Notes: generated from the sequence alone by a model not told the origin. A stretch of DNA of 63,528 nt, filler included, from Reclinomonas americana ATCC 50394 (GCA_048213135.1; 8 parts of 4 records of this genome joined end to end with filler, not necessarily neighbours in it); one strand, 5' to 3'. Counted from the whole stretch's first letter, positions 1-59,997 are shown. Made by a program: numbers and translations.

Positions 1-3000
1 CTCGTGCAGGTTTACCGCATTCTCGTTCGCCGAAGGATTCAATGCCGGCGGCGAAGGCGGTGAATCCAGCCGTGGTGGCAAGGCAGCTCCGGCTGCGGCT
101 GCCGCCAAGAAGCCTGCGGCACCGGCAAAGGGCGGCAAAGCTGGTCGTTGCGTCACACTGCTCTTTTCGCACTTTTCTCTCTGATTTCGCTCGCTGCTCA
201 CTGTTGGTTGCGCGATCACAGCTGGCGCGGCGGCTGGTTTCAACCTGGGTCCATTCACCATTAGTCCATTTACCGGCGTGGTGGAGCCGGATCAGACGGT
301 CACGGTCACGGTGGAGTTTGCGGCGCGGGGAGCTGCGCTGTTCTCGGAGGAGCTTGGCATTCACGTGCAGGATCGCGATTTCCGTGACCATCCCGAGGGC
401 ATCAAGTTCATCCTGGAGGGCGAGAGCGCCACTCCCGGCATTCTCTGCCGCGACTACGAGACCATCTTTGAGGAGCAGCAGGTGGTCAAGCAGCTGGACG
501 TCATGGCGCAGCAGCAGTGCGTGTTTGCAGAGGACCAGCGCGTCTTCTCGTTCGGCACTGTCCTTGCGCGCACCGAGGTGAGAATATTCGTGCATGTCGA
601 GTTTGGTGGGTGTTGTTGCTCAATTGTTTCTTGTGCGTGTGTCTCTAGGTTCGACAGCGCTTCCGCATTTCGAACCCCTTCAAGATTCCGTGCGACGTGA
701 CTGTGGCTCTGCGCAAGACCGACACCGCGCCGGAGATGGTGTTCGCCGTGGAACCCGATCGGCTCAGCATCCCACCGCACGACTACCGCTACGTCACTGT
801 CACGTTCAAGCCGCAGTCGCTGAACGCCTTCTCGGCGACCTTTGTCGCCACCGTGGTCAACGGACCCGACGCCAAGACGAACAATTTGACGTTTGATCTG
901 CGCGGCGACGGTACGCTCCCTCGCATCAGCGTGCTGCGCCCGGCCGATCGGCTGCCGACGGGCCAGCTGCCGCTGCCGTTCCCGCGCACGTTTATCGGCA
1001 AGACCTCCAAGTCGTCGATTGCCGTGCGCAACGACGGAGTCCTGCCGGCATCGTTCCGCTTTGATCTGCCGCAGCACGCGGCCTTCTCGTTCGCGCAGCG
1101 AGGCCGCGATCTCAGTTGCGCACGCCGCTGTTTTATATTTGTTGCCTGTTGATGACCTGACCTGGCGATCGGCACAGCTCTCGCGCCACGTGAGCAAATG
1201 GAACTGGAGGCACTCTTCTGCCCGACGGCAACCGAAAAGTACCAGGCCGAGATGAAGATCATTGTGTTCAACAACTCGTTCGAGGTGCGTTTGTTTGTGT
1301 GTATCAATCTGCCTCCACTCGCACGCCTGTGTCACTCATTCACTTCTCTCTTTCCCTCCTGCAGCAATCGACATTCTTGCTCACGGGCGAGGGCTTCACC
1401 GAGGACCTCACGCTGGAGGACCTGAAGTTGGATGCCACCGACGTGTTGCAACTGGGCGACTGTGCTGTGGGCGCCTCCAAGGATGCCGCATTCACGATTG
1501 CCAATCACTCTGGTCGGTGCTTCCGCTTCGAGTGGCAAGTGCCGAATCCGGCCGTCACCGTGTCTCCGCAAGTTGGCCATCTGCACCCGCACGCTCGCAA
1601 GGACGTGGTGATTAGCGTATCATCGGCGCAGGCCGTGGACATTGCCAAGGTGCAGTGCATGCTCAAGGCGGTGGAGGTGCGCCACTCGTCGGAGGACACC
1701 AACGACTGGGACGATCGCATGAAGAGTGTGCGGTGGGAAGACGCGCCGCCTGCCGCTGCCGGTGCCGCCGGGTCGTCGTCATCAGCGCCAAGTGCTCGCA
1801 GTCCACCGACTGCGCCTGGTCGGAAAGTGCGCGTGGTCGAGGTCGATCGCGAGCCTCCTGTGCAGCCAGTGGCTGGCGCGGCGCCGATCCAGAAGCAAGT
1901 GCAAGTCAGCGCCAAGATCGGCTACAGCCGCTTCGAGTGCGCCACCACAGCGGTTGCCTTCAAGCCGACGCTCCTGTTCCAGTCGCGCGTCTTCAAGTTC
2001 CCCTTGCGCAACACTGGCCTCGTGGCGTTGCACTTTGCGTGGGCGATGGAGCACGCGGACGAAGCCGGTGTGGTGGAGGACGAGTCGTCGTTCTCGGTGG
2101 CGCCGCGCACCGGCGTCATTGCACCGGGCGATCAGCAAGAGATCACAGTGCGATACTCGCCAAACGACGTCGACTCGCATCGCGCTGCGCTGGCGTTGGA
2201 GGTGGCCAACTTGGACCCGAGTCTGCGCCCCGTGCGCATTCCGCTCACTGGTCAGACGCTCTGTCCTGCGGTGCACTTTGAGGTGCCATTCAGCTCCTAC
2301 AAGCACAACACCGATCTTCCGGGCCCCGGTGGCAAGTTTGGTCCGCTCGACCCGGAGACGCGCGTCATTGAGTTTGAGTCGAAGGGCGTCAAGATCCGCA
2401 ACACCAAGCGATTCTACATTCTCAACCCGACCAACACCATGTACGAGGTGCGTGCCATCGCCACTGCCACCGCCATCACAGTTGTCATTCATTAAGATCG
2501 TGTTGCTCAATCTGTGTGACTACCCACCAATCGCAGTTCTTCTTCGAGTCAGAAGATGGTGAGTCGTCTGCGTACCCGGCCTTCAAGTGCCTCACGCCGC
2601 ACGGACTGGTGGCGTCGGGCAAGAAGTTTGAGATTGTGTTCGAGTTTACGCCCGACGCGCTCGCCACGGTGGAGTCGTTCTGGCGCTTCCGCATACCGAG
2701 TTTCAAGGTGTCCCAGCCGTTCATGCTGGTCGGCAAGGCACTGGAACCCGATCTGGTACTCGACAGAACCTTCATCAACTTCCACCACCTCCTGGTTGGC
2801 GCGTACTCGCGAGAGGTGGTGCATCTGGTGAACCGCGAGATTGTGCCGTACACATTCTCGTTTGACGAGAAGACCTTGGAGACTGGCGACGAGCAGCCTG
2901 TGCTCAGCGTCTCTCCACTGTCTGGTGTGGTCGGTCCGGAGAGTCAGTTGCCCATTGAGGTGCGTGCGTGCATGCGTGTGCCTGGTGAGTGACGTGGAGC

Positions 3001-3414
3001 TGCTTGCTCACTCGTCGTTTATCACACAGATTGTGTTCAATCCACGCGCGGAAAAGAGCTTCAACTTCAACTTGGTGTGCAACGTGCGCAAGAAGCCCTC
3101 ACACATCACTCTCAATGTGAAGGGCGAAGGCTTCATGGTGCACGACGAGATTCAGCTGGTGGCACACGATGGACAGACGATGCCTCTTGCCGCCGGCGTC
3201 ACCAATCGCATTGACTTTGGCGAGGTGTCGGTCAACGAACGCCACGTGCGCAAGTTGCGCGTCCTCAACCACGGCAAGTACAACTTTGACTTTTCCTGGA
3301 CGCTGCCGTCGCATCCGTATCTCGGCCTCACGCCAAGTACGTCGCCTGCATGTTTTGAGCCCCTCAGATCGCTTTTCTCATTTTGCGTGCAGAGCTGGGC
3401 ACGGTGAGCCGTGG
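1..3414 (+). CDS. HYDIN: HYDIN-like axonemal central-pair protein, internal multi-exon part (5' end outside window)
   Basis: Spliced reading of ORFs 278..700, 697..1152, 1299..2495, 2516..2992 and 2841..3407 gives tandem ASH/PapD-like modules and HYDIN-like motifs (NDWDDRMKSVRW, FKPTLLFQSRVFKFPLRNTG, LDPETRVIEFESKGVKIRNTKRFYILNPTN, FNFNLVCNVRKK). Phase-compatible GT-AG introns include 578-648, 1115-1177 and 2448-2536. Confidence 0.85.
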
Positions 3415-5712: not shown

Positions 5713-8535
5713 TAGAGACGATGGTGGCGGACCGGCGGTACGCGGCATTTGTTGATGACCGTTGGCGGCCTGCTATCCAGTGAAAAGTGAGAGACAGAAG
5801 GTGTGGTGTGTACGACAGGGGGGGAAGAGAAGACCGCTCACCATTTGCCTCTGTTGAGTCACGTATGCGTAGTATTGCTGGTGCTGAGCATGCTGCTGCT
5901 GTTGTTGTTGTTGTTGTTGAGCATGCTGCTGCTGCTGTTGTTGTTGTTGTTGTTGTTGCTGCTGCTGCTGCTGCTGTACAGCGTACGCTTGGTGATGCAT
6001 GTGTTGCGGCGCCGCAGCGTACATCATGTGTGTCGGAGGCACTGCGGCGGCATTCCGCGGAGCTTGTACCACCTGCGGCTGCGACTGCGGTGGCGGCGAT
6101 GGACTCGGTGCCTGCTCGACGTGAGCGACAGAGGAGGAAATGCAACAGAAAACGACGCTGAACGGAGACGCACCACTGTGTTGTACCCGTACGGTGACGG
6201 CGCCGGTGCGTATGTAGGCGGTGGTGTGGGAGCAGCAGCAGGGATGCCACTGCGCATGGCCTGTGGCTGTGGAGGCGGCACCGACGACATGGGAACCACT
6301 TGCGACGGTGGCGGCCCAGAATATGCCGTGGGTGGTGGCACTGGATGCATCGGTTGAGGCGTTGGTACAGCCGTGGGAGGCGGCGACGGCGCTGCCATGG
6401 GCACGTATGCTGGACTGTGCGGCATGGTGGGAACAGCAACTGGTGGCCGTCGCGATGCTTGTGAGCCGGGAGCCGGGGCCGGCATGTTGGTCGGTGCCGA
6501 CATGCGACCGCCACCGCGCGACTGTGTACGCCGGCAGTCGTGAGATGGGAGGGAGGGGGAGAGAGAGGGAGACGAAAAATTGTACGTGCCATACTGCCGT
6601 CGTGGGAGGCATCCTCTTCGGATTCGAAGAGAATCGAGATGGCGGAGCGACTGGGTCCACGCGACGCCAGTGCACCGACACTGTGTTGCGCCTGCAGGAC
6701 GAAGGATCGAGCTGCACTGCCACCCAACTCTGCCGTCCATCCCACCGCGCTTCGCGAGGCTTGCGCACTCGGCACGTAGTGCCACCACTCGCCAACATGG
6801 TGATTGCCGACGAGTGTGCTCGAGCTGCGGTCCTCGAACAATCCACCATCGAGACCAAGTGTGCCGTCGTCGTACATGCTGCGTGTGACAGCGTGTGAGT
6901 CGCAGCACCACACACGTGCACCAAACAACATCTATGCAACTTGCGATGTGAGATCAGGCCTCGCAGCCGACTCGGACGTCCGTGAGAACGCGTCGGCACA
7001 TTCCTGTTGTGCACACTGTCAACAGCAATCACCACAAGTTAGATGCAGTCACACACAACACCACGTACCATGATGCCTCCGGTGATTCGCGACTGTCGCG
7101 CTCCACTCGCGCCCGCTTCACCGGGGGTACACAGAGGGGGAACAAAAAAAGGAGTCAAGGGCACAGAACAACAGACGGTGAGGTGAATGCACACTGCTCT
7201 CAATGACAAGAAGGATATGATGCACGCTGGCGAGCTTGGCGGGATCGTCTGCGACGCGTTTGCGATCGAGCGATGCCAAGTCCGCGTGGCTGTCAGTGGC
7301 GTCGGCGGCGGCGGCGGCGGCAGTGGCGGTGGTGGCAGCAGTGGTAGTGGCGGGAGCAACGGCGGCCGCAGTCGTCGTGCGTGTTGTGCCATTTGCATCC
7401 GCCACACTCGGCTGCACGACACAAGTCTCGTTGGTGAGCAGGAAGACGGAGACACACACTCGCACCCCTCGCATCACCTTGCGACGCTCGCGTCCATTCT
7501 CGCGCACCGGACCATGGCAGTGGAGGCGGTGGGCCGGCATGAAGGACGACTTCAAAATGCGCCGGCACGAGTGACACATGGTGACCGAAAGTGGTTCGTA
7601 CAACGGGTGGTGGCCGACAATGGGTTCCACTGCGTGAGAAGGTCACAGGAGAGACAAGAAATCATACAGAGAGAGCGAGGAGTCACGGAACGTGTCGACG
7701 GGAGGGCAACCAGCGTGTTGCACAATCCTGCAAGCCAACGCTGTGAGTGCTCAAAAACATGGGAGAGCCGAGACGGACGGGCAAGCAGCGTCACCCACCG
7801 TGGCGATCGTAGCCGGTCTCCAGCAGCCGCAATGCATCGCACCACCGCGTTCCTCGCTCCACGCCCAAAAACGAGTCCGCGATCGGTCTGTCGCGCGCGC
7901 GTCAACAAATGATTGATTGGAGGAAGGAGGAAGACAAGAGCGCGGTGACACGCAACTGCGCTGCCGTAGACGACGACGCCGACAAGGGCGCGACAGGCGC
8001 CATGGCCGGCGTACCCGGCGACAAGAGCGGCGACATGGGAATGCTGCTGTGATGATGCGCAGTGATCGACACCGATCCCGACGACGACGACAGCGGCGAC
8101 GACAGTGACAGTGGAGGAGGCGGCGACATGCGAGTGGAGACAAACGCAGAGGACGACGAGGGGAGTGGAGGAAGCGGAGGGACGGTGCGCTGGGGAGTGC
8201 GTGAGGCGACTGTTGCTGCTGCTGGGGGGAGAGCAGTGGCCAGTGAGGAGGAGGAGAAGGAGGAGCTCAGATCAGTCACTGCTCCTCCGTCGCCACTGTT
8301 GGCGCTGTTGAGCAGCAGCAGGAGAGGTGTGATGCCGGAGGCCAGTCGCTCCAAGCTGATGCCTTGGAGGATGCCGGGCAATGTACGCGTCACTTGCTCA
8401 ATGTCTGGAGTGTGCGCGTGTCAGTTGGTGTGTGCGCGTGCGTGCGCGCGCGTGTGTGCTTGGCGCTGCGACGCAACGTGTGACAAGAGTGGCGAGGGTG
8501 TCGGCACTGTCACCAGAGGCCGCTTGCGACGACAT
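5713..8535 (-). CDS. Ataxin-7/Sgf73-like protein (zinc finger plus Pro-rich and poly-Q regions), multi-exon
   Basis: The exon around 7510-7630 encodes VGHHPLYEPLSVTMCHSCRRILKSSFMPAHRLHC, resembling the ATXN7/Sgf73 N-terminal CxxC-x11-HxxxC finger. ATG at 8535, donor C|GTTGCG at 8477, poly-Q at about 5890-5976. No SCA7 domain was clearly identified. Confidence 0.45.
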
Positions 8536-9623: not shown

Positions 9624-10426
9624 GTCTCATGTTTTTTTCGCTGGTTTTTTTGCGACATGCCATGGCTCACTTGCTCTCTCTCTTTCTCTCAGGCGCGGCC
9701 AATGGCGTGTCGGCGATTATAACGAGGTGAGTGACTTTAACACATACACACATACAGCGCGCGATGGAAAGAGAGACTGAGTGTGATCGATCACATATGC
9801 ACACAGTCATCCACTCGATTGCATCAAGACGCGCATGCAAGCCGAGCGACTGGGCGTTGTGTCGCGAGTTTCGTGCACATGTCTCTCTCCTTTTCTCTCT
9901 CCTCTTTTTGCTGAGCTGTGATCATCATCGCATCATAGAGTCAGAAACTGCTGGGCACATGGGGCGTCGGGCGAGCTATTGTGCGCGAGAGTGGCATTCG
10001 TGGACTGTATCGTGGCGCGCTGCCTCCGCTCTTTGGTGCGCCATAATGTGGCCCCTTCTCTCTCACACACACGCAAAGTCTCTCTCTGTCTCTCTGAACC
10101 AGTGTCGCAGGCACTGCATTGCTCCGATCGGTGCAGTTCGGATCGTACGCGTGGGGAATGGATGTGTGCAAGCAGCTGCCAGCGGGACCCAAGTTCTTCG
10201 GTGCCAGCTGGTCGGTGTGGGCGGCCGGTGCCTTTGCTGGGTCCGTGTGTTTGTTAAAGCAGGGAGGAGGGACGAGACAAGCAGGCGATCGTTGACGCTT
10301 TGGTTGTTGCAGGTTTGCTCGTACGTTTTTTGAGGTTCCGCTGGAGCTTGTCAAGGTCCGGCAGCAGGTGGAAATGTCGTGGAACTGGCGCTCGCTCTAT
10401 CTTGGTTTCATGCCGACCATGATAAG
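9624..10426 (+). CDS. Mitochondrial carrier family (SLC25) protein, partial, multi-exon
   Basis: Short exons give GAANGVSAIIT / HPLDCIKTRMQA / IVRESGIRGLYRGALPPL / SVQFGS / FFEVPLELVKVRQQV..LYLGFMPTMIR, containing two Px[DE]xx[KR]xR carrier signatures. Both ends are lost in N gaps. Confidence 0.85.
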
Positions 10427-11053: not shown

Positions 11054-15893
<4,840 letters not shown>

Positions 15894-21601: not shown

Positions 21602-21979
21602 ATGAGCGACGTGCAGCAGGCCATTGTCAGTTGCGTGTGCGTGCTGTGTCAGACAGTGTGCTTTGCTTTGCTGATGAGCTTGTGTGTGTGTTGTGCGCGC
21701 AGTTGACAATGGGTCAGGTGCGATCTCCCGCGCATTCGTTGTCTCTCTTGTGTGTGTGTGTGTGTGTGTGTGTGTTCATGTGCGTCTGTAGGTGTGTGCA
21801 AGGCGGGTTACTCGGGTCAGGATGCGCCACAAGCTGTGTTTCCGTGTGTGATTGGCCGGTGAGAGAGAGAGAGAGAGAGNNNNNNNNNNNNNNNNNNNNN
21901 NNNNNNNNNNNNNNNNNNNNNNNTTAATTAATTAANNNNNNNNNNNNNNNNNNNNNNNNNNNNNNNNNNNNNNNNNNNN

Positions 21980-22054
<75 letters not shown>

Positions 22055-37123: not shown

Positions 37124-39418
37124 TCAGTGACCGCTGCTCCCGGCCTCGGACCGCGCACACATGGCGCTGTCATCGTAACTCGGCAGCGGTGTCACGTCGT
37201 CGCCATAGTCTAGTGTGCTGCCCACGAGATGCATGTCGGCCTCTGACAGAGGCATGTTCACCGTGAGCACCAGTCCGCGCATGGCGGCGCTATTGGCACG
37301 ATGCAGAACGGTCCACGTGCAGGCGGTGCAGGCGGCCAGCATGGCGGCGGTGATGGCAAAGATGGTGAATGGGCTCGCCGTGCCGACCTGCAGACGCACG
37401 CACACACACACGTGAGATCGAGAGGGCAGAGGCTAACCGAGACACGTGTGCGCACACCACACAAAAAAACCGCACCGTCAGCAAGATGAGTCCCACCAGC
37501 AGATTGAGCGGCACGCGATTCAGCGTGCCGACCACGCCCACCGTGTGCTGCGGTAATACGGACACTCGCACCGTCGCCAACTGCACGCAAGAATGACGCG
37601 AGTGAGCATCAGGCCACTCACGTGTGCTGACCATCGTCGCACGACACGCAACTGCAGGCAAGAAGCATCCGCAGCAAATCTCAAAGATGCAGCAGCTGAT
37701 GAGTAGTCCATACCCAGGCGCCCTCTGCTTCCACCATCAGCGGACATTCAAAAAATTAAACAAGCGTGCTGAAAAGAATCGCAACCCACCGCAAAGAGTG
37801 CCACAAAGATCATGACCATGCAGGCGATTGGAGCGGCCAGTCCCGCCGACTGGAACGGTGTAAATTGCGCCGTGGACAACTCGAACAAATCCGAGCCGAT
37901 CATGAGACTCTCCATGAAGCACGCAAAGACCAGGCCGTACACGTCAAACATGCCGCTTCCGTTCGACACCTGCACCGTAACGCGAGGTGAGTAGCGAGGC
38001 GGAAGGCCCAAAAGAAAAAGCCATCGCCGACCTTGATGTCGGGCGCAAAAGTCGATTTAAGCTCCAGCGATGGCATCAGCGACGGCGTCCACAACAGCAC
38101 AAAGAGGAACATGGAGGCCTCGAAGAGCACCTGCATGCCACTGATCAGGGGCACCAGCGAGCTGGCCCGCACGGTGCGAATGCCGGCAGAGATGGTGGCC
38201 ATGAGACCGCCGCAGCGGTGCACGGGGTAGTTCTCGTTCCACCCGCGCAGAATCACCAGCACGCCGGCCGACAACAGCACGGATGCGAGCAAGAACGGCG
38301 CGCGTGGGTCGTCGAAGAAGCGAACCACAACGGCGGCTGATGGAGAAAAGAAGAGGTGTGAGTGCAGGTTTGAGAGCTCTGCTTACTCCTGATTGCAGCA
38401 TGTCTCAGACTATTGTACAACATTCAACTCACTGCTGTCTCTCGAAAGCCTCCGGCTCCCGTCAAGGCGATTAAGATCTCACTGCCAGCACGCAACCTAA
38501 ACGANNNNNNNNNNNNNNNNNNNNNNNNNNNNNNNNNNNNNNNNNNNNTTAATTAATTAANNNNNNNNNNNNNNNNNNNNNNNNNNNNNNNNNNNNNNNN
38601 NNNNAATCACCTGTGAGGGTGGCCAGCACCGAACACATGCTATTGGCAAACGCCGCCGACGACAACACCGACGTCAGCTCCTCTGGCGGCAGGCGATTCT
38701 TGCGATGCTCATCAGCCACCCACGCATCAAACGCCGTGTACAAGATCGACGAGGCAAAGCCGGCAAGCGCACGACCGGCCACGTGTACATATGTCGACGC
38801 GCTCCACACCGACGAGCACGACAGAATGTAACACATGCCGCACAGCAGACAACTCTTCTTCCGTCCTCTGTGCGTGCACAAGCCAGTGATTCAGTACAAT
38901 GCCCGCTCTCATCAACGTACGCGGTCACACAGCGCAACATTCTCTCCGCCAGCAGCGTGGCAAATGGCAATCCAAGCAGCAGCTCAGCGGCATAATCAGT
39001 GAGGAAGAGCGCTCCGATCGACTGTGTCGAGTAGGCCCACACTGTGTTGTAGACGAGGAACGAGTATGGTCCCTGAAGCCAGTCGGAGAAGGCGAACAGC
39101 GAGTATGCCCACGAATAGGCCTGCTGGAAGGGCAACTGACCACGTGGCCGACTCTGTCCTCCAACACCACCCGCCACTGATTGTGTGTCTGTGTGTGTGT
39201 GTTTGCGATGAGAGAAGAGGAAAGAGAGAAAGAGAGAGAGAGGTGGTGAGTGTGGAGGATGGAAGGCACGTGTGTGTGTGTCGTTTGCGCGAACCCTCAA
39301 ACGGATTGACATCATTGTCGTCATCGGAGGGCGGTCCGAACGCCTTGCGCGAAAGGCGTGCCGCCACGCACCCTGCTGTCACAAAGGCGAACACACCAAA
39401 CACGCCGTCATAGCGCAT
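37124..39418 (-). CDS. MFS transporter, MFSD5/MOT2 (molybdate-anion transporter)-like, multi-exon
   Basis: Motifs FSDWLQGPY, GRKKSCLLCGMCYILSC, GRALAGFASSILYTAFDAW, QVLFEASMFLFVLLWTP, GLVFACFMESLMIGS and NRVPLN. The gene crosses the spacer at 38505-38604. Confidence 0.88.
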
Positions 39419-43706: not shown

Positions 43707-45692
43707 TTACATTGTGGCGGTATTGGCGGTGGTAGTGGCCGACGACGACGACGGTGCCGGCGATGCAGCCGGCGGAACTGGCGACAGAGCCACCGGTGAG
43801 AGGGCCGAGTATTGCAGTGCGGCGCCCGACAGTGATCGCTCGATCGAGGACATGCGCTCACGAACTCGATCGAGTTCGCGCTCCCGCTCGTGCAGCAAGT
43901 CGCGCAGTCGGTCGACTTCGCTCGTCAGCTCCTGCGCGGTGTTTTTGTGCTCCGCTTGGAGGTTGGCCATCACCTGATTGAGTGTCTCGCGACTGGCGTT
44001 GGCTCGCTCGGCGAAAACATGCTCCGCTTCGGCTGCCTTGCGTGTCATCTCCTTCAGTTCGTCGTCCTTGCCGAGGAGGCGCTCGCGGTACGAGGCAATT
44101 TCGGTGTCACGCAGTTGCTTTTGGCGCTGCACAGCTACCAGGTCAGCTCACACGTACACGATGATGAGCACGCAAATAATTAATCGTGCGCACCTCGATT
44201 TCCGAGGCCAGTCTCTTGATCTCGTCCTGTGCCAGCTGATCGCGCTGCTGTGCACGCGCCTCAGTGGACTGCGCATCGGCCACGGCGTCTTGCAACCGCC
44301 GCGACAACGAGTGGTTCTCACTCTCCAGTTCCGCCACTCGTGCTTCGGCTGTCGCCCGTCCCGCACTGTCGCGCTCCAGCGACACGCCCGTCACCTGCAC
44401 GCCAGAAAGCAATGAGCACACACCACTGCAGAACGTCGTCGTTGCACGCACACACACACACACACACACACACCTGCAGCTGCTGGCGAACAGTGGTCAG
44501 TGACTCCTTGGTGTCGACGAGCTCGCGCTGCGTGGCAGACAGGGACTCCTCGCGCGCACTCAACGCCAGTGTGGCAGAGTCCAACCGCGATCTCGTCTGC
44601 TCATTCTCCTCGGCGGACACCGCCAGTCGCCTCTCCAGCGTGTCACCACGCTGCGCAGCCTCTTGCAACTGCGTGCGCGTCTCTCGCAACACCCGCTCCA
44701 GTTCGGCAATCTGCTGTCGCTGCTCCACAACCGTCACGTCGCGTTCGCGCAACTCTCCTTGCGCCCGCTCCAGCTTCGACTCCACCAGACTCAGCTGCTT
44801 CTGCGTCTCGTGCAAGTGCGTGTTGGTGGCCTCTAGCCGTCCACGCGCCTCCGCAGTAGCCAGATCGTGCTGCTGCACGTCGGCCGTCAGTCGCTCGAGC
44901 TGCGATTGCGCCGCTCGCAGCTCACCCTGCACCGTCTGCAGCGTTTGCGTGCCCTCCGCGAGCTCCCGTTGCCTGCACAACGCGAGAGGGTTGTCAAGAC
45001 GCGCAGTGACAACATAAACATAGGCAAGCGAGCAGGGGAGAACCGTTCCCGCAGCTCGGCCTCCAGTTCCCCGATGCGTCCCTGGCCCACGCCCATTTCT
45101 TGCCTCAAGCGCTCAATGTCGCGCAGCAATGCTCCCTTTTCGACCTGCGCAGCCGCCAGTTGATCCTGCACCTGCGCCACTGCTCGCTCCCTCTCCAGCT
45201 GTGCACTCGATCGATCGTATGAGTGCCTCTAATCTGACATGAAACACGACATGCAGCACACCTGCACACGCTGCAGCTCCAACCCGAATCGCTCTGTCGA
45301 GTGCTCGTGCTTGGCACGTTCCAACTCCAACTGGCCCTGCACCAGATGCACCGCCTCCTCATGCGCTGCGTGTTCCGACTCGGCCTCCAGTAGCTGCCAC
45401 TCGGCCTCTCGCCACCCCGACGACTGCCACGACGAGAGTGAGCGACAAAAGATGAGAGAGTGTGTGTGAGAGAGTGAGCTCACGCAACATTCGCGCTGTG
45501 TCGTGCCAGCTCAGCGGCCAGCTCGTGGCCAATCGCCTTGACGCAGAGAGTGAGAGTGTGTGAGATGATGAGAGCGATATGCAATGCATGCAAGTGCACA
45601 ACGCTCACATGCGCGAGCAGTCGCTGGAAAGGACCCGCTGGTGGCGGTTGAGCGGCCTTGCTGAACCGAGCGCCGTGCTGTGCGACCGACAT
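43707..45692 (-). CDS. Long coiled-coil protein of unknown family, multi-exon
   Basis: E/Q/R/L-rich heptad ORF segments 43707..44132, 44318..44980, 44887..45180 and 45229..45483 joined by GT-AG introns. Confidence 0.7.
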
Positions 45693-45805: not shown

Positions 45806-47451
45806 TTAGGGAATGCCACAGGCGACCACAGAGACACTGATCCAGCCGGCCAGCTTGTCGTCAAACGCGCTGCCGAAGATGATGTTGGCGTCCTCAAAGA
45901 CTTCGCGACGTACGCGCTCTGCTGCCGCCTCGACCTCGAAGCTGTTGCGCGGTTTGGTCAGTTTCTTTCGCTAACACCACCATCACCACCACCACTACAA
46001 CAACACGCAACAGTGTGAGATCGGGACCGCCGGTGATGTTGACCAGCACTGCCTTGGCGCCGCGCAGTGAAATGTCGTCCAGCAGCGGGTTGCTGCATGC
46101 ATCCCCGAGGTGAGACCATGACAGCAGCGCAACAGCAGAGGAAGAGAGCGCAACGTAATGGCCTTTTCCGCGGCGACCACGGCACGATCATCGCCCGTGG
46201 CGCGTCCGACTCCCATCAGCGCGCGCCCAGACTCGCTCATCATGACGGCACGCACATCGGAAAAATCGAGGTTCACCAGGCCGGGCACCAGCATGAGATC
46301 CGTCACCGATCTGCATGTGCACATGTGAACAAACCTCTCCACCACCACCACCACCACCACCACCATCACTGCAACGAACCTTACGGCCGTGTACAACACC
46401 TCGTCGGCCATGTGGAACGCCTCCTTCAGTGGCGTCTTCTTGGAGATGACACGAAAGAGGTTTTGATTCGGAATAACAATCAGTGTGTCGCACGCCTTGC
46501 GCAACACCGCCATGCCCTGCTCGGCCACTCGCATCCGATTGGCGCCCTCAAAGTGAAACGGTTTCGTCACCACCCCCACCGTCAAAATCCCCTGATGGGA
46601 GAAAAGAAGTCAGCGCCACAAGATATATACGTCTCGTTGCTTCTGCAGCAGCAGCTGTTGCGCACCATATTACGTGCTTCCTCGCAAATCACTGGCGCCG
46701 CACCAGTGCCCGTGCCACCGCCCATTCCCGCCGTCAAAAACAGCATGTTGGAGCCCTCAATGGCCTTGACGATCTCGTCCATTGACTGCACGGCCGCCGT
46801 GCGACCGGTCTCCGGATCGGCGCCGGCGCCGAGTCCTCGCGTCGTGCCCGGTCCCAGTTGAATCCGAACCGGCGCCTTGGACATTTCCAGCGCCTGCGCG
46901 TCGGTGTTGCAGGCGACAAAGCGCACCTTGTCGAGACCCGAACTGATCATGTTGTTGACGGCGTTGCCACCGGCGCCACCTGCGCCCACAATCTTTTACA
47001 CGCAGCGACGAGTTAGCACAAAAAGACTGCGGGAAAAAAAAGGAGCTTCCTCGGCTGACCGTGATGCGTGGGAGCACTGGATCGAAGGGCTTGGCCGATG
47101 GAGGTGCCGCGGCCGTGGCAGAGTTCCATGAGGAGGACGATGGTCGTCGATTGCCGACAGTGCTGCGACGATGGTTCAAGTGGGCAAGAGCGATGGTTCA
47201 AGTGGCAAAGGAGCGATGGTCATGCAACGCGCGTGTGTGCATGTGATGAGAGAGATGAAGAGAGAGCGATGCAGTACGACGGTTCTCGTGCGTGCGAGGC
47301 GATGATCGTGCACAGAAGAAGTGATCGGGTGTGTGAGCGTGTGTGCACACCTGCTGATCCCGATGCGTTTCCCTCCCGCGCTGTTGTTGCCACTGCCGCT
47401 GCTGCTGAACCAGCGTGCAAGCACACGACGATATGCGATCGCCGTCAGCAT
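45806..47451 (-). CDS. ftsZ: Nuclear-encoded mitochondrial FtsZ, short form without C-terminal tail, 7 exons
   Basis: Presequence-like [18 protein letters not shown], then [68 protein letters not shown] and [18 protein letters not shown] (TAA 45808-45806). Confidence 0.95.
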
Positions 47452-51139: not shown

Positions 51140-51903
51140 ATGCCGCAACACACACTCGCACTTTTGTCACTTGTGCTGCTGGTGGTGTGCATTGCATCAG
51201 TCGGTGCTAGAGAGTACAAGAGACTGGAGGAGGTGCCACTAGTCGCGGCGAGAATCGGTCAGTTGCCTGCATTGTGACAAGCACACATAGAAACACATTG
51301 CTGACGTGCATGCTTGTCTCACTCTCATACAGGTCCATTCCATGTTGCGCCTTGCTCACTCTGCTTATCCCCTCGTTGTCTGTGCACGCGCACACACACA
51401 CTGACGATCGCTCAATCAGAATCCACAAGAGACCTACGGTTACTACGATTTGCCCTTTTGTGCGCCATCGGATCGCGACGCTGTGAGCAGTTTGCCACTG
51501 GGCGAGACACTGGAGGGCCTGAGAGCAGTTGCACTCACCTTTTGCTCTCTTTTCCTTCTCCTTTTGTTTGCGTTGGCTCATCGCGGTTGCGCAGCATCGC
51601 ACACTGTACGACATTCGCTTCCGCGTCAACATCGAGTTCACCTCGCTCTGCAAGGTCACCTACCCGGCCGAGAGCGTGGAGCGGTTCCGCGATGCGGTGG
51701 CGAATGACTACGAGTTTCTCTTCTTGTACGACGACATACCGGTGCGTGGACTGGTGGGCACCAAGGAGCCGGCCGACAGCAGCAACACGCATTTCCGCTT
51801 CCTGCTGTTTACGCACTTGCACTTTGATCTGGGAGCGAATGGACCGCATGTGGTCGAGGTCAATGTGACGGCGGATTACACCAAGGCGGTGGATGTGACG
51901 ACG
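51140..51903 (+). CDS. TM9SF/EMP70 nonaspanin (TM9SF1-like), 5' exons
   Basis: Signal peptide, then spliced VPLVAARIGPFHNPQETYGYYDLPFC, LGETLEGLRAHRTLYDIRF and FRDAVANDYEFLFLYDDIPVRGLVG..LFTHLHF. Confidence 0.88.
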
Positions 51904-53656: not shown

Positions 53657-54840
53657 CCTCCATTCAAGAACGACGACCACCAAAACGCGTAGTTGTCGTT
53701 GGTCAGCTGGAAGTACGTCAGGGCGACCGACACGCAGCTGACTACCACCGTCAGGATGACAAACATGAGCAGCACGATAATGTACGGCGTGTACTGGTGC
53801 CGACCCCACACGCTCATGAAGATGTAGTACAGCTCCACGTAGATGGCGGAGAACGGCAAAAAGCCGGCCACCAACATCTGCACGGGCCGACTCATGAACC
53901 TGCACACGCCAGTGAGTGACTCTTGTCCGCCTTCCTCCTTCCCTTCCTCTCTCTCCTTCTCTTACTCCGCCTGTCTGCCTCTGTAGTTGCCTTTCAGTTT
54001 CTCCCTCTTATCGTCTCTCTCTCTCTCCCTCTCTCTCTCTCTTACTCCCTCCGTCTGTCCCCCTCACCACGGCATGGGCGGAATGACCGAGGCCGCCTGC
54101 CGCGGCCGACAAGGCCGCGAGAAGGGCTCAGCCGTGCGCTTCCCGTGGAAGGAGCCCAGCAGCGTCAACGGAAACGTCACCAACGCCAACAGCAGAATGA
54201 AGGAGAGTGCCGTGCGGAAGGGCAGTGCGGCCGTGGAGCCGTACGTGACCGCCACAGAATTCAACACGCTCCACACCGCAAAGGCCGGCACCGAGAACAT
54301 GCAAAACGTCAACAGCACATTCTTCACCCAGTCCTCCTTGCGACCCTCCATCTTTTTGAAGAACGAGGCCGACGTGTAGCCGGCCACGCTGCCCGTCAGT
54401 GCGTACGACACGATAATGGCCGCGTACAGCGTGCCGCGTGTGTACTCGTAGAACACGCCGAGCGTCGTCAGCGACATCACCAGCATCGACAGCACGTACA
54501 ACTGCAGGCCGACACCACACAGCGCCGCAAAGAGGTTCTTGTGCGGTGGAAAGCGGAACACGTCACGCGCCAGCTTCTTCCATCCCGTCTCCAGCTTCTC
54601 ATCCTCCAAATCCACTGTGGCGTACATCTGGTAGTCGCGGTTGAGGATGCGCATCATGAGGAACACCAGCGCGCCCGTCAGCAGCACGACCACGACCAGC
54701 GAGTTGAGGATGGAGAACCACTGAATCTCCAACTCCTTCCCACTCGGCAGACTCGCCAGGCGAGTCACGCGGTCGTCGTAGGAGAGCGGTGAGTCGTGCC
54801 ACTGTGCTGAGTAGGTGAACTCGAGGACCATCGGTTTTAC
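53657..54840 (-). CDS. TM9SF middle exons on an inverted contig
   Basis: LEIQWFSILNSLVVV, ETGWKKLARDVFRFP, GFLPFSAIYVELYYIF and LTYFQL..WWSSFLNGG. Splice phases match the + strand exons on either side. Confidence 0.88.
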
Positions 54841-56745: not shown

Positions 56746-57325
56746 TGAGAGAGAGAGAGAGAGAAAGAGAGTTAGAAAGTGAGGGCCTCACCTTTGTGTA
56801 CGCCGACTCCGTGTCAATGATTGTCTTGTCGTACTCGCGCAGCGACTGCTCTTTCCGCGCCAACGAGTCCACAATGCGGTGCAATCGGTCGTTCAGGATC
56901 TTGATGTCGTTCTCGATCTGTTGCAGAGAGAGAGACACACAAACAAAGTGAGACAAAATTAGAACGCAGCTTCTTCGTGTGTCATCGTATTACCTTGAGC
57001 TTCTCCTCCTGCTCCTTGGCCATCTGCCGTGACACCTCTTCCCGCTTTCCGCGGAGGTCCTCAATGCCTGTGAGTGAGTCACAGTGAGTCAGAGTGCGAG
57101 ATGGCAACACAACCGCCACTCTCTTCACTCCTGACACGCACACACACGCACACACAGACGCGCGTGCTCTCACATGCGCACATACACACACAGTGGCAAG
57201 TGCGCTCGACACACACACACACACACAGAGTGCACAGACGCGTGCTTGCGTGAGTAAAGTTTGACGCAACACTTGACCAACTCATTGTTGGTGGCCTGCA
57301 GGTTGGCTCCACTCGACGACGCCAT
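56146..57325 (-). CDS. SSNA1: SSNA1/NA14/DIP13 centriolar-axonemal coiled-coil protein, 4 exons
   Basis: [71 protein letters not shown]. Confidence 0.93.
56320..56745. repeat. Intronic tandem repeat, about 110-120-bp unit, 3 copies plus a partial copy
   Basis: GAGAAAGAGAATGCAG(T/C)TCAAGAGGCTGAGAG(AG)CGAAGGATAACG..AGGTG(T/C)GCC recurs near 56381, 56503 and 56613, separated by (GT)n/(GA)n. Confidence 0.9.
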
Positions 57326-57754
57326 TTCCACTCTGCACACCTCGCACAGTCAGCAAACACACACCAGAAAGTGAGAGAGAGAGAGAGAGCGATGAGGCAC
57401 GCGCACTGACCTCAAAAAACGCTCAAGTCCGCCGAGTGGAACGGACCGTGGAAACGACTTTCATCTCGCGTTTGTCTTGCGTGCGCGCTTCTGCAAGTGA
57501 GGCCAGCAGCTGCACCAGAATCAGACCGGTGGAGGGACCCGGTTGGTGGATTTGAGCGGTGCGTGTGTGTGTGCGTGTGCGAAAGAAAAAAGTGGTGAAA
57601 ATGTCGCGCTCTTTTCCGCTCACACTCTTCCCTGCACACACACACACACAGTGAATCAAGTGAGCGTCAGCTTCCGTACGCTGGCAGTGGAGTGAGCAGT
57701 CAGCAAGCAAGTGCGCGCAGCAACAGTAACAACAACAACAACAACAACAAGGGA

Positions 57755-59997
57755 ATGCCAGCAGGTGGAAGTGGTGCTGCGGCTGCAGCGGCCGAGGAGA
57801 ATGGCGAGAAGAAGCAAAAGACACGAGAGCCCGATAGCAGTTGCGTTGTTATGTGCCTTTGCTTGGGTGTGTTTTGACGGATGCTCAATTCTGTTTGTTG
57901 TTGTGCGTGTGTCACAGAGTCCAAGTTCAAGCAACAGCGCTTGTGGGCGTGGCAGCCGGTGCTGTCGCCGGCGTGGGTGATTGGCACGTTTGTGTTCTTT
58001 GGAGTGTTTTTCGTGCCACTGGGAGCGGCGATTTTGGTGGCCAGTCGAGGAGTTGCGCAGGGAGGGAAGAGAGAGAGGGAGACGTGGAAGATGATGCACT
58101 GTCGTCCGCTTCAAGTGTTCTCTGCCATCAGTCTCTGTTGGCTCGTCTTTCGTGCTCCATTGCACAGCGGTGACACGCGGATCTCTCGATGGATTCGCTG
58201 TGTCTCAGTTGGCTTGCCTTTCGTATTACTTCAGCGATGTCATCGTCCGCGTTGCACCTACAGTCTCCCGTGTTCGATGCCTCATTGCATCGTATTCTCT
58301 TTGTGTCTGCGCACGAAGTCTTCCGCTGGCTTGTCTTTCGTGCTCCATTGCACAGCGGTGACACGCGGATCTCGCGACTCAGCCTTTGATCTCAGTTGGC
58401 TTGCCTTTCGTGTTACATTCAGCGATCGCATGCCATCGGCGTTGCACCTGCTCTGCTCTCTTCACTGTGCCCACAGTCTCCGTGTTTGATGCCTCTTCTG
58501 TGTCGCCTTCACTCATGTGTCTGCGCGTTCAGTCTCAGTGGCTTGTCTTTCGTTCTGCTCTGTCCCCGTGTCGTCTTCACTCTTGTGTCTGCACACAAAC
58601 CTTCAGACTCCGTTGGCTTCGTCACTATGCGTTCATTCTTCGTCAGCTGACGCATCGTGTCGCCGTCGTTCGCGTTGAATTCATTTCCCATCGACGGAAC
58701 AGCCTTCTATCTTATTGCTTCGTGTTCTGTGGTATGCTGTCCGTGTCGCATGTGCTTGATCGTTGATTGGCTTGTCGTCTTGTTGTGCNNNNNNNNNNNN
58801 NNNNNNNNNNNNNNNNNNNNNNNNNNNNNNNNTTAATTAATTAANNNNNNNNNNNNNNNNNNNNNNNNNNNNNNNNNNNNNNNNNNNNATGCAACCCTCT
58901 TGTCTTGGCGCGTCCCTTGATCGCTTGCACTTCCCTCCTCTCTCTCTCTCTCTCTCTGCCGTCCGCATCCTACCTGCCCTATTCTTCCCCCCTTCCCTTT
59001 CACCCACTCTTCCCCTTTTCTTCTTTTCCCACCCCCCAGGTCGTGGAAGCCTCGGTGCGCTACGACGACCAAGGCTGCATTGCGAGCTGCGTGAACGCCT
59101 GCATCGCGGGCAACTGTGCGTGCAACTGGCAGTGCCAGCTGCCGACGGGCGGCAACTCGCTGACGATTACGGTACCGAAGCGCATGGAGCCACCGGTGTA
59201 CATTTACTACGCGCTGGACAACTACTACCAGAATCATCGGCGCTACGTACAATCGCGATCGGATAAGCAGCTGCAAGGATCGGTGGTGACGGCGTCGACA
59301 CTCGACTCGTCGTGCTCCCCCGTCACGGGCCTGAAGGGTGCCGACTCGCAACCGCTGGAGACGTACTCGCCGTGCGGCCTGATTGCGTGGTCCATGTTCA
59401 ACGACACCATCTCTCTGCTGCCGCCGGGCGGCGGTGCACCGCTCTGCGACGGTGGCAACCCCTCGGGAGCGTGCACGGGCACAGGCATTGCGTGGCCGGC
59501 CGATGTCGACACCAAGTTCAAGGCACCACCGCCGGGCCAGTACCTCACCAACCCCAGCACCTACCTCAACGAGCCCACGCATGTGATTCCACTGCAGACG
59601 AGTGAGGTGCGCATATGACAGATGATTGCTGTGACGCGCACACAGACAGAGGGATAGTGCGCCGACACGATTTCTCTTTTTCTTTGGGCAGGATTTGATG
59701 GTGTGGATGCGCACGGCGGCGCTGCCGAATTTCCGCAAGCTGTACCGCATCTACAACGCACCGCTGGATGCCGGCACGTACAATCTGCAAATCACAGAGC
59801 GCTACGATGTGTCACGCTTCTCGGGCAAAAAGTACGTCATCTTGTCGACCTCGTCGTGGGTGGGTGGCAAGAACGACTTCCTCGGCATCGCCTTTATCGT
59901 GGTGGGCTCGCTGTCGTTCGCGGCCGGCGTCGTCTTCTGCATAATGTCGTGGAGACGGTGGAGGCACCGTGAGCGCGGCCAGCTCAAGTACCACTGA
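57755..59997 (+). CDS. CDC50: CDC50/LEM3/ALIS flippase beta-subunit, 4 exons
   Basis: SKFKQQRLWAWQPVL, PVYIYYALDNYYQNHRRYVQSRSDKQL, PCGLIAWSMFNDT, VWMRTAALPNFRKLY and SSWVGGKNDFLGIAF. The gene crosses the spacer at 58789-58888. Confidence 0.95.
58139..58600. repeat. Intronic tandem duplication, about 188-bp unit, 2 copies plus a partial copy
   Basis: TGGCT(C/T)GTCTTTCGTGCTCCATTGCACAGCGGTGACACGCGGATCTC at about 58139 and 58327, with a third partial start at about 58539. Confidence 0.9.

Follow-up and report, generated by a model that had tools for sequence, protein, structure and literature searches.

A GTTGCG class of 5' splice sites goes with exons not ending in G in a stretch of Reclinomonas americana DNA

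The window analysed here, a single 63.5-kb stretch of Reclinomonas americana DNA of which 6294 bases are masked, carries an actin-like gene, an STE20-type kinase gene, TM9SF genes on both strands, and genes for mitochondrial-type FtsZ, DEX1-like, CFAP65/hydin-like, Armc9-like and SSNA1-like proteins and an MFS_5 transporter. A preliminary description of this DNA had proposed that, besides donors of the GTG type, a second class, GTTGCG, is used where the exon does not end in G, and had listed 19 such donors and four variants. Introns were called with a gene parser, whose motif-blind run required only GT at the donor and gave 139 introns. A homology-only set of 20 junctions was placed by homology scores from which the splice motif was excluded; special-case homology tests were prompted by the preliminary list of sites, and each was blind to the motif. 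The curated catalogue comprises 111 introns (37 with T at +3, 74 with another base), and a curated motif-matching set comprises 26 GTT-class and 40 GTG-class donors. GT-AG boundaries are present at the 20 junctions. The homology-validated introns are as follows, the bar marking the exon-intron border.

21630..21702, + strand, A|GTTGCG intron of actin-like gene 1; best of 527 N-terminal models, 28.5 versus 19.8 bits
21718..21791, + strand, G|GTGCGA intron of actin-like gene 1
21859..22093, + strand, G|GTGAGA intron of actin-like gene 1; 38.1 versus 24.2 bits
22210..22272, + strand, G|GTGTGT intron of actin-like gene 1; 66.5 versus 58.5 bits
22402..22464, + strand, A|GTTGCG intron of actin-like gene 1; 63 nt, in frame and without a stop; first among 58 in-ORF candidates at 158.2 bits, versus 143.0 without the intron
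22683..23043, + strand, G|GTGTGT intron of actin-like gene 1; 140.4 versus 129.3 bits
41643..41726, + strand, C|GTTGCG intron of the STE20-type kinase; in frame; the MST4 alignment shows a 28-residue surplus, and of eight in-frame GT..AG pairs this one alone spans 84 nt
51258..51332, + strand, G|GTCAGT intron of the + strand TM9SF gene; in the best of 547 models
51344..51419, + strand, T|GTTGCG intron of the + strand TM9SF gene; best of 547 models, 53.8 versus 37.1 bits
51528..51594, + strand, A|GTTGCA intron of the + strand TM9SF gene; 80.7 bits, donor common to the top three models
53900..54067, - strand, G|GTGAGG intron of the - strand TM9SF gene; 130.4 versus 123.3 bits
45942..46011, - strand, T|GTTGCG intron of FtsZ; 110.9 versus 105.9 bits, correcting the parser
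46093..46154, - strand, C|GTTGCG intron of mitochondrial-type FtsZ; 129.6 versus 104.9 bits
46592..46665, - strand, G|GTGCGC intron of FtsZ; 165.5 versus 158.0 bits
11175..11244, - strand, G|GTGCGC intron of the DEX1-like gene; 104.3 versus 93.7 bits
11368..11436, - strand, C|GTTTCG intron of the DEX1-like gene; 69 nt, in frame; 120.0 bits versus 98.3 without the intron, 26 candidates
11775..11846, - strand, T|GTTGCG intron of the DEX1-like gene; 78.2 versus 60.8 bits, 15 of 16 alignments without a gap
11927..11989, - strand, G|GTGCGC intron of the DEX1-like gene; 63 nt, in frame, missed by the parser; 83.1 bits versus 63.5 without the intron, 24 candidates
12085..12155, - strand, G|GTGAGT intron of the DEX1-like gene; 79.0 versus 65.9 bits, 19 of 19 alignments without a gap
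12243..12443, - strand, G|GTGCGC intron of the DEX1-like gene; 127.6 bits, replacing the parser's donor 12413; without the 12443 donor the alignment has a 10-residue insertion

The other introns and sites are these.

147..221, + strand, C|GTTGCG intron, CFAP65/hydin-like gene, absent from the preliminary list; parser only
1115..1177, + strand, A|GTTGCG intron, CFAP65/hydin-like gene; parser, with and without donor model
7888..7956, - strand, A|GTTGCG intron, absent from that list; parser only
8472..8477, - strand, listed C|GTTGCG site; called as a donor in no pass
9856..9938, + strand, C|GTTGTG intron; parser only
11549..11622, - strand, doubtful candidate A|GTTGCG intron, DEX1-like gene; parser; homology rank 7 of 8 (74.5 versus 84.0 bits), low because the homologues are gapped there
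13009..13070, - strand, candidate A|GTTGCG intron, DEX1-like gene; parser; three homology models at most 0.3 bits apart
13375..13440, - strand, T|GTTGCG intron, DEX1-like gene; parser, with and without donor model
15587..15708, - strand, T|GTTGCG intron, DEX1-like gene; parser, with and without donor model
25393..25458, + strand, C|GTTGCG intron, absent from that list; parser only
26580..26940, + strand, candidate long C|GTTGCG intron, absent from that list; parser only
30249..30323, + strand, exception G|GTTGCG, Armc9-like gene; parser; 3' end at 30323 or 30431
31060..31133, + strand, T|GTTGAG intron, Armc9-like gene; parser only
37581..37652, - strand, candidate intron at a listed A|GTTGCG site, MFS_5 gene; not parser-called; 72 nt, phase 0, flanking frames open; a Pfam search of its short exons gave no match
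38868..38938, - strand, supported T|GTTGCG intron, MFS_5 transporter; parser and exon-level Pfam colinearity, coordinates colinear to within 1 residue (projected 96, then 97)
45424..45488, - strand, T|GTTGCG intron; parser, with and without donor model
57068..57270, - strand, T|GTTGCG intron, SSNA1-like gene; parser
57840..57917, + strand, A|GTTGCG intron; parser, with and without donor model
58052..58115, + strand, A|GTTGCG intron, 3' end uncertain; parser only

GTTGCG was found at all 19 listed coordinates, and also at 30249. Seventeen of the 19 stand as donors in the curated catalogue, but 8477 and 37652 were never called. The parser recovered 11 of the 19 without a donor model, and homology alone fixed seven (21630, 22402, 11846, 41643, 46011, 46154 and 51344); 11622 and 13070 were parser-called, but homology gave them no validation. 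All four listed variants are in the catalogue, 11436 (GTTTCG) and 51528 (GTTGCA) being homology-validated and 31060 (GTTGAG) and 9856 (GTTGTG) being parser calls, and four GTTGCG donors (147, 7956, 25393 and 26580) add to the list. Several junctions had been assigned from conserved residues: the top-scoring models reproduced actin VIDNGSG, FtsZ AITNPLLD and DLTLFEV, and TM9SF GPFHNPQE, and for SSNA1 ELVKCIE an in-frame NNELVK-C-IEDL, with the reading frame as its basis, was read across the junction. Among the exceptions that had been pointed out, 30249 (G|GTTGCG) and 13548 (T|GTGCGT) were parser-called, but 29648 and 3337 were not.

GTTGCG-type donors make up about 35-45% of introns in the window, and GTTGCG was the commonest donor hexamer of the motif-blind parser (14 of 139 introns versus 1.15 expected, P = 2.7e-11). 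The proposed association between a non-G base at -1 and the shifted motif holds in the homology-only, curated and motif-blind sets of the window. In the homology-only set, G occupied -1 in none of nine donors with T at +3 versus 11 of 11 others (Fisher, 6e-6); in the curated motif-matching set the counts were 1/26 for the GTT class and 31/40 for the GTG class, in the curated catalogue divided by the +3 base only 5/37 (+3T) versus 48/74, and in the motif-blind set 1/14 for GTTGCG versus 21/35 for GTG[ACT]G. The nine of 40 curated GTG-class donors with non-G at -1, e.g. 13548 and 56427, are parser calls. Of the 32 curated donors that follow a G, one is GUUGCG, and against 22 GTTGCG donors there are two GTGCG donors after a non-G base. 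At the level of sequence, two donor classes are confirmed, and which of them is used can be told almost without fail from the last exon base.

The extra base was only ever T: against 22 GTTGCG donors, none of 14 GTAGCG, 59 GTCGCG or 103 GTGGCG occurrences was a donor. In base composition, position -1 of the GTT class (T9 A9 C7 G1) is like the GTG class at -2 (T15 A14 G6 C5) and unlike it at -1, and after a one-base shift the downstream positions agree (G, C/N, G, T/C). The GTT class is, however, not the same motif merely displaced, as had been suggested: C stands at +5 in 24/26 of its donors versus C at +4 in 17/40 of the GTG class (p = 3e-5). Intron phases 0/1/2 are 19/13/8 in the GTG class and 7/8/11 in the GTT class, which fits an exon that dictates and an intron that adapts.

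We consider the best explanation, with a little less than an even chance of being right, to be one recognition element read in one U1 register, the cut being set by the GU on offer. Both donor forms would be versions of a single element, G-K-U-G-C-G-Y, with the U1 5' end in a single register, and the U1 cytosine usually opposite exon position -1 would always face G. Later GU-reading steps would place the cut at whichever GU the element provides, after the first G where K is G (G|GUGNGY) and before it where K is U (H|GUUGCGY), so that the first intron G would stand in for a final exon G. Availability of G at -1 would be set by the exon's coding sequence, the intron supplying an extra U if there is none, and the constancy of this base would be a requirement of U+3 pairing with U1 A7. 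U1 would differ from the textbook form at least in having G at position 5, opposite the near-obligatory C. We infer a non-canonical U1 reading both classes in one register, with U6 and the active site tolerating one extra nucleotide. In form, the class resembles human +1-shifted sites, H|GUU plus consensus as against G|GU plus consensus. Passages of PMC4856993 and PMC11162779 report shifted and bulged U1 registers proven by experiment in human cells, and a passage of PMC11162779 has U1 defining the splice site roughly, with U5 and U6 setting the cut. The +1-shifted register of rare human sites would here be a routine mode serving about 35-45% of introns, i.e. an off-by-one splice signal that is rare in humans would be routine in this protist DNA. 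Such a donor class is not reported in the literature searched.

The preliminary proposal of a shifted register, with G+1 in the place of G-1, is partly supported. The T-only insertion and the likeness of -1 to GTG-class -2 fit it, but the class is not a pure shift, given C at +5 in 24/26, and the canonical duplex is unstable. With the canonical U1 5' end, the duplex with U|GUUGCGU was computed at +0.5 kcal/mol, whereas U|GUGCGU came to -1.1 and U|GUUGAGU to -2.7, so that a shift on textbook U1 would account for the C no more than for the favoured extra T. A U1 of Mastigamoeba type, where donors are GUGCGC and U1 reads ACGUAC (10.1101/2022.06.08.495308), pairs better with U|GUGCGU (-7.0) than with U|GUUGCGU (-4.2); pairing energy alone would therefore leave the extra U after non-G exons unexplained. 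When U1 was varied at positions 5, 6 and 8, eight of 64 variants reproduced the observed ranking, all eight with G5 and seven with a base other than C at position 8. The energies and the C count at +5 favour a variant snRNA, one of the alternatives first raised, and we predict that U1 is non-canonical or that there is a second U1; neither U1 nor U6 genes lie within the 63.5-kb window.

The same results lend some weight to a different reading, unlikely but to be taken seriously, in which there are two U1 species or one strongly altered U1 and the GTT class is a primary, directly read code rather than a shifted one. In its two-U1 version, G|GUGNGU would be matched by the 5' end of one U1 and GUUGCGU, in full complementarity, by that of the other (G5, non-C at 8). 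Canonical U1 would prefer GUUGAG, yet 24/26 GTT-class donors have C at +5. Co-evolved U1 5' ends occur in Entamoeba and Mastigamoeba and mixed U1 variants are mentioned for Physarum (10.1101/2022.06.08.495308), and a passage of PMC12621601 describes a diplonemid genome with U1 copies differing in the 5' end. However, complementarity of a U1 to GUUGCGU would on its own leave the avoidance of GUUGCG after exons ending in G unexplained, and most lineages with +4C donors, e.g. Thecamonas and Mamiellales, keep a standard U1 (10.1101/2022.06.08.495308).

A bulged register is improbable. Here U1, and later U6, would pair with G+1 and U+2, one U (+2/+3) would bulge, and GCGU would pair as +3 to +6. 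The donors do look like one-nucleotide insertions between +2 and +5, as in the human bulge(+3/+2) sites of which passages of PMC11162779 and PMC4856993 speak, and T could be favoured because a bulged base next to another of its kind has no unique position. But such a register keeps U1 C9 opposite exon -1, so G should help there, and it is nearly absent (1/26 curated, 0/9 validated); moreover, the bulged duplex amounts to the H|GUGCGU pairs plus a penalty and cannot explain the preference for GUUGCG (22 versus 2).

Quite improbable, too, is an ordinary seesaw between exon and intron halves (U5-type versus U6-type) in an unchanged register, in which an exon lacking -1 G would call for a stronger intron half, with U6 or a protein factor reading GUUGCG. 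Compensation between -1G and +5G, with two separable classes, is described for intron-rich eukaryotes generally in a passage of PMC11732430. Unlike in those published classes, the halves are not anti-correlated here, as G is at +5 in 40/40 of the GTG, G-ending class. The non-G class differs through an inserted base, not through a better match, and on the published pairing scheme unshifted GUUGCG would give U6 ACAGA only +2 and +3.

That the pattern is an artefact of gene modelling, or of selection in the preliminary description, is very improbable, although the parser did err. Comparison with homology revealed at least three false or misplaced donors (12413, 45977 and 22216), a wrong acceptor for donor 21630 and five overlooked introns (22402, 11989, 11436, 21718 and 21859). 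Donor 12413 (- strand, DEX1-like gene) was rejected, its best model scoring 93.5 bits versus 127.6 for the 12443 donor. In the whole window GTTGCG has 63 matches versus 57.9 expected, and at least 63 in 30 of 100 shuffles; as the hexamer is not enriched overall, the claim depends on the sites being donors. False GTT donors would have a random -1 base, about 77% non-G. Yet nine +3T donors were placed by homology scores blind to the motif, GTTGCG is about twelve-fold enriched among motif-blind donors, and -1 is G in 10/43 non-donor GTTGCG occurrences versus 1/22 donors. Finally, a mobile intron (introner) multiplying with its own GTTGCG end is a barely credible source of the GTT introns. A passage of PMC3879977 describes introner families with typical donors in Micromonas, but when 111 intron interiors were compared all against all, the 24 pairs that matched had no common element, every pair being CA/CT/GT microsatellites or sense/antisense predictions at one locus.

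No U12-type donor was seen in either class. Median intron lengths are 71 and 72 nt in the two classes, acceptors are mostly CAG in both, and both share branch-like motifs of the form CT[C/G/A]A[C/T].

GTTGCG is a real donor signal in this DNA. The hexamer is present at all 19 coordinates where the preliminary description had placed a GTTGCG donor, and it is not enriched window-wide (63 found vs 57.9 expected). Since it is unenriched overall, intron catalogues were built in such a way that no bias toward GTTGCG was possible. The window (GC ~55-60%, eukaryotic nuclear DNA, with 6,294 bases N-masked in 27 runs) yielded 446 stop-free ORFs of at least 80 aa for a Pfam search, the matches of which provided strand-resolved anchors for ~20 genes. 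These include genes encoding CFAP65/hydin-like, DEX1-like FG-GAP, Eapp, two actin-like, amino-acid permease, urea transporter with ankyrin repeats, MFS_5, WD40, STE20-type kinase, FtsZ, TRIC, P450, two TM9SF and CDC50 proteins. A codon model trained on the Pfam-anchored ORFs only was used in a dynamic-programming gene-modelling program (the parser), which accepted any GT...AG intron from 35 nt up to 600 nt in the first pass and up to 450 nt thereafter. GTTGCG led the donor hexamers even without any splice-site model, heading 7 of 94 introns. Acceptors (as a matrix), intron interiors and a length prior were learned in the second pass, with intron positions +1 to +10 withheld from all learning; GTTGCG then headed 14 of 139 introns, the next hexamer reaching 8, while 1.15 were expected from the 7,630 GT sites of the window (P = 2.7e-11). 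A two-component mixture fitted to intron positions +3 to +8 separated GTTGCG(T), with a weight of 0.36, from GTG[C/T/A]G[T], with a weight of 0.64. We refer to these as the GTT class and the GTG class. Both occur inside single genes (actin, FtsZ, DEX1 and TM9SF).

Ab initio models err, and false GTT donors would have a random base at -1, the last exon position. For this reason, homology was used as the only criterion for fixing junctions. HMMs were built from homologues of DEX1, FtsZ, TM9SF and actin and, at each junction, every frame-compatible GT...AG pair within ~60 nt was spliced and given an HMM score to which splice motifs contributed nothing; for small exons and for introns in frame, the candidates were enumerated exhaustively. 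At 20 junctions, the best model among frame-compatible GT...AG pairs (GT donors only) restores colinearity with the homologues. The donors of these validated junctions are as follows.

Donors fixed by homology (window position, base at -1, gene, support)
21630, after A, actin: best of 527 models, 28.5 vs 19.8 bits
22402, after A, actin: best of 58 candidates, 158.2 vs 143.0 bits with no intron
46154, after C, FtsZ: 129.6 vs 104.9 bits for the runner-up
46011, after T, FtsZ: 110.9 vs 105.9 bits for the runner-up
11846, after T, DEX1: 78.2 vs 60.8 bits for the runner-up
11436 (GTTTCG), after C, DEX1: 120.0 vs 98.3 bits with no intron
51344, after T, TM9SF: best of 547 models, 53.8 vs 37.1 bits
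51528 (GTTGCA), after A, TM9SF: 80.7 bits, donor common to the top three models
41643, after C, kinase: 28-residue surplus relative to solved MST4 structures, the 84 nt being removed by one of eight in-frame GT...AG pairs
21718, 21859, 22210, 22683, 46665, 12443, 12155, 11989, 11244, 54067 and 51258: the other best donors, all after G

At the actin junctions, the conserved residues demand introns cut at GT-AG and do not fit a cut displaced one base inward. Measured against homology, the parser misplaced 45977 and 22216, gave donor 21630 the acceptor 21791 where 21702 is correct, and missed the validated donors 22402, 11989, 11436, 21718 and 21859. Its donor at 12413 (T/GTTGAG, the slash marking the cut) is false, the homologues placing the junction at G/GTGCGC, position 12443. 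Corrections of this kind led to a curated catalogue of 111 introns, 66 donors of which match the GTT or GTG motif. Not every donor of the preliminary description held up equally well. That at 13070 shares its homology support among three models lying within 0.3 bits, that at 38938 has looser support, from colinear Pfam coordinates, and that at 11622 ranks only seventh of eight because the homologues have a gap there. Those at 8477 and 37652 were called in no parser pass, and the short exons flanking 37652 gave no Pfam match.

Among the 20 validated introns, four preserve the frame and contain no stop: 22402-22464 (+), 63 nt; 41643-41726 (+), 84 nt; 11927-11989 (-), 63 nt; and 11368-11436 (-), 69 nt. 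As multiples of three without a stop, they are concealed in long ORFs, and their retention adds an in-frame insertion rather than a stop; three of the four were missed by the parser. CA, CT and GT microsatellites are common within introns (for example in 41643-41726, 56449-56791 and 12707-12870), so that the exact donor is ambiguous where an exon adjoins a (GT)n run.

The two classes are tied to the last exon base, although exon bases were shown to none of the models. At the working threshold, one of 25 GTT-class donors follows a G, whereas 19 of 30 GTG-class donors do (Fisher 3e-6); without any donor model, G precedes 1 of 14 GTTGCG and 21 of 35 GTG[ACT]G donors (p = 0.001). G precedes 10 of the 43 non-donor GTTGCG occurrences, so the depletion of -1 G belongs to the donors. 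Among the validated junctions the separation is complete: -1 is G in none of the nine donors with T at +3 and in all 11 others (Fisher 6e-6). Splitting the curated set by the +3 base alone gives 5/37 vs 48/74, and its 66 motif-matching donors have -1 G in 1 of 26 for the GTT class and 31 of 40 for the GTG class (p = 1.1e-9).

Last exon base by donor motif in the curated set
GTTGCG: A 8, T 8, C 5, G 1
GTGCG: A 0, T 1, C 1, G 15
GTGAG: A 1, T 0, C 0, G 10
GTGTG: A 2, T 2, C 2, G 8

The GTT-class consensus (n = 26) is G at +4 (25/26), C at +5 (24/26), G at +6 (24/26) and T or C at +7 (25/26); that of the GTG class (n = 40) is G at +3 (39/40), G at +5 (40/40) and T or C at +6 (33/40). Thus, as the preliminary description had claimed, the GTT class has the form of a +1-shifted site, i.e. 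a non-G exon end (but for one donor in 26), GUU, and then the species' own consensus displaced by one base. Position 37785 was considered as a second G/GTTGCG donor and rejected: with the 37725 acceptor it leaves a stop in the next exon, and G/GTGGGT at 37789 fits.

Both classes are ordinary U2-type GT-AG introns. Their median lengths are alike (71 and 72 nt) and acceptors are mostly CAG in both. In raw counts, uncorrected for chance, 17 of 26 GTT-class introns contain CT[A/G/C]A[C/T] no more than 60 nt from the 3' splice site, and so do 20 of 40 GTG-class introns; the median distances are 17 and 21 nt, respectively. Phases 0/1/2 number 19/13/8 in the GTG class and 7/8/11 in the GTT class, counts that fit the idea of the exon dictating and the intron adapting. 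U12-type introns are ruled out, as none of the 66 curated donors matches [A/G]TATCCTT, which occurs once in the whole window. Copies of a mobile intron (introner) were also discarded: the 24 intron-intron matching pairs are only microsatellites or same-locus antisense predictions.

How might U1 read the two classes? In U1-donor pairing, C9 pairs with -1, C8 with +1, A7 with +2, and so on. Human +1 shifted-register 5' splice sites were reportedly described by Roca and Krainer in 2009, and sites using a bulge(+3/+2) U1 register reportedly by Roca et al. in 2012. The bulge(+3/+2) register, also treated by Tan et al. 2016 (PMC4856993, in the part available), shares with the GTT class the appearance of a one-base insertion between +2 and +5. 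It keeps -1 opposite C9 of U1, however, and should favour G at -1, or at least not disfavour it. Here GTT-class donors hardly ever have G at -1: none of the nine validated and one of the 26 curated ones do, compared with 10 of the 43 non-donor GTTGCG occurrences. Moreover, the inserted base is always T: there are 22 GTTGCG donors, and none among the 14 GTAGCG, 59 GTCGCG and 103 GTGGCG occurrences. The -1 base of the GTT class (T9 A9 C7 G1) also resembles -2 of the GTG class (T15 A14 G6 C5) and not its -1. Together, these three features favour a single-register reading over a bulged U.

In such a single register, C9 of U1 would always stand opposite a G, provided by exon -1 in the GTG class and by intron +1 in the GTT class. 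Human +1-shifted sites are described, in the available parts of PMC4856993 and PMC11162779, as read by a U1 displaced by one base, with U5 and U6 setting the cut. Like them, the GTT class has a non-G exon end, an intron beginning with GUU, and a one-base displacement of the consensus; in the human sites, G at intron +1 replaces exon G-1 opposite U1, and the form of the donor suggests the same here. The difference is one of frequency. The same sources, as far as available, put all validated non-canonical registers in human at ~1.5% of 201,541 sites, whereas here the GTT class makes up 9 of 20 validated junctions, 26 of 66 curated motif-matching donors and 37 of 111 curated introns, and is tied to the -1 base almost without exception. 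The single-register reading is nevertheless incomplete, as C is kept more strictly in the GTT class (24/26) than at the corresponding position of the GTG class (17/40; p = 3e-5).

We calculated duplex energies for textbook and Mastigamoeba-type U1 ends, either of which may differ from the organism's own U1.

Duplex energies in kcal/mol (canonical U1; Mastigamoeba-type ACGUAC)
U/GUUGCGU: +0.5; -4.2
U/GUGCGU: -1.1; -7.0
U/GUUGAGU: -2.7; +0.2

These modelled energies argue against a textbook U1. An ACGUAC-type end, which reaches -4.2 kcal/mol via UGCGU in the shifted register, would account for the C and not for the preference for an extra U. The shifted register of the preliminary description is thus partly supported: the inserted T, the -1 profile and the lack of -1 G speak for it, while the strictness of the GTT class and the instability of the canonical U1 duplex speak against it. 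When U1 was varied at positions 5, 6 and 8, 8 of 64 variants gave the observed donor ranking, with G5 in all eight and a non-C8 in seven. Because all fitting variants carry G5, a non-canonical U1, or two U1 species, is predicted for this organism, a modelling result that reaches beyond the counts and energies themselves. Within the window, Rfam found no family at the gathering threshold, and thus no U1, U6 or other snRNA gene; at E up to 1 there were four sub-threshold matches (two miRNA, one snoRNA and one sRNA family) and no snRNA. A bolder proposal, which we regard as doubtful though worth stating, is that the 5' splice sites follow a dual code. Through at least one U1 with a non-canonical 5' end (G5, probably with non-C8 in one copy), /GUUGCGU would be a fully complementary primary signal beside G/GUGNGU, and in about four in ten introns the catalytic core would operate with an additional nucleotide separating the cut from the GCGU that is paired to U6.

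Irimia and Roy (2008) are said to be the source for the canonical introns of Mamiellophyceae. These are AG/GTGCGT with an NCTGAC branch site in the available part of PMC3879977, and the G-ending class of the window shares that donor and has CTGAC/CTCAC-like putative branch motifs. In contrast, the accessible text of PMC3879977 contains no T-inserted class for Mamiellophyceae, that of preprint 10.1101/2022.06.08.495308 assigns them a standard U1, and the present window is intron-rich with proteins that are not mamiellophycean. GUGCG-type donors are published for Mamiellophyceae, Mastigamoeba and Thecamonas (PMC3879977 and the same preprint, in part). In Archamoebae, excerpts of that preprint give GUUUGU(U) donors with U1 AACAAAC for Entamoeba and GUGCGC donors with U1 ACGUAC for Mastigamoeba. 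The likeness lies in GUU-type and GUGCG-type donors as genome-wide norms, and in a C at +4 explained by a G in U1. Archamoebae as described there, however, have one near-universal atypical consensus per genome, whereas here two, with weights of 0.36 and 0.64, occur side by side within genes, the last exon base deciding between them; nor are the proteins of the window close to Amoebozoa. A non-canonical U1, or more than one U1 species, has precedents in Archamoebae (the same preprint) and in a diplonemid (PMC12621601), as far as those texts are available.

Exon/intron compensation and two donor classes are already published (PMC11732430, in part). As with the U5-type and U6-type classes of that work, two separable classes are found, one leaning on the exon end and the other on the intron. 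Unlike them, the exon-G class here keeps G at +5, so that -1 G (31/40) and +5 G (40/40) are not anti-correlated, and what sets the other class apart is an extra U, which alters the spacing rather than how strongly the site matches. Andalucia godoyi has introns in only 12% of surveyed genes, according to the accessible part of PMC7050145, and was on that ground discarded as the origin of this DNA. The available texts of the Entamoeba, Micromonas and diplonemid papers (10.1101/2022.06.08.495308, PMC3879977, PMC12621601) describe no such T-inserted class, and our literature search found no report of a T-inserted second donor class in the same genes, selected by the last exon base, although supplementary logos of protist genome papers may hold one.

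With small corrections, the two-class donor observation is confirmed within the DNA sequence used here: one window, 20 homology-fixed junctions and ~110 modelled introns. If it holds genome-wide, the system would be of real interest to splicing specialists. How the exact cut site is chosen, with U1, U6 and U5 reading overlapping bases, is still debated, and the human shifted and bulged cases are rare and scattered. An extra U in ~40% of introns genome-wide, in the same genes and switched by one exon base, would amount to a natural experiment, offering thousands of matched sites on which to ask what snRNA determines the register, what spacing is tolerated by the active site and whether U1 co-evolved. 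Were the dual code true, this would be the first genome to vary routinely, according to the exon, the register of U1/U6 pairing relative to the scissile bond. On the practical side, such introns will be mis-called by gene finders whose training used a single donor matrix.

Several genes of the window deserve mention in their own right.

2-3407 (+) and 3976-5544 (-): converging genes with CFAP65/hydin-type Ig/ASH domains
21602-23316 (+) and 23982-24746 (+): tandem actin-like pair with a masked stretch between, both spanning Pfam actin from ~217 onward
32150-34574 (-): urea transporter domain (PF03253, E 1.4e-67) followed by ankyrin repeats
45806-46995 (-): FtsZ, nuclear and intron-bearing
51140-53692 (+) and 53653-55790 (-): two TM9SF (EMP70) genes, tail to tail
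56146-57325 (-) and 56391-57700 (+): parser gene models overlapping on opposite strands

The best named matches fall in different groups depending on the gene (chlorophytes, Discoba, alphaproteobacteria). In searches scoring a subset of candidates, the best named relatives of DEX1 are chlorophytes (up to 58% identity) and those of TM9SF are Euglenozoa and other Discoba (~50%). No exon query matched above 70% identity among the candidates scored, which is weak evidence for the absence of a close relative; on the same weak grounds, the DNA may come from a protist lineage that has been little sampled. The closest relatives of FtsZ are alphaproteobacterial (Aliidongia, Parvularcula, Rickettsiaceae), and one unnamed protein scores far above the named ones (230 vs 149 bits). 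By sequence similarity, this FtsZ is of the alphaproteobacterial (mitochondrial) type, and the organism would thus retain the ancestral mitochondrial division system. The second actin-like gene is only ~55-60% identical to its best representatives, so that both are probably divergent actins or actin-related proteins. The urea transporter domain and ankyrin repeats look like parts of a single gene with almost no introns, unlike the genes around it, which are intron-rich. The CFAP65/hydin-type genes, together with an SSNA1-like gene, indicate from their similarities a flagellate source. Finally, the 5' part of the 56391-57700 (+) model, with its weak splice signals, probably just mirrors the - strand SSNA1-like gene.
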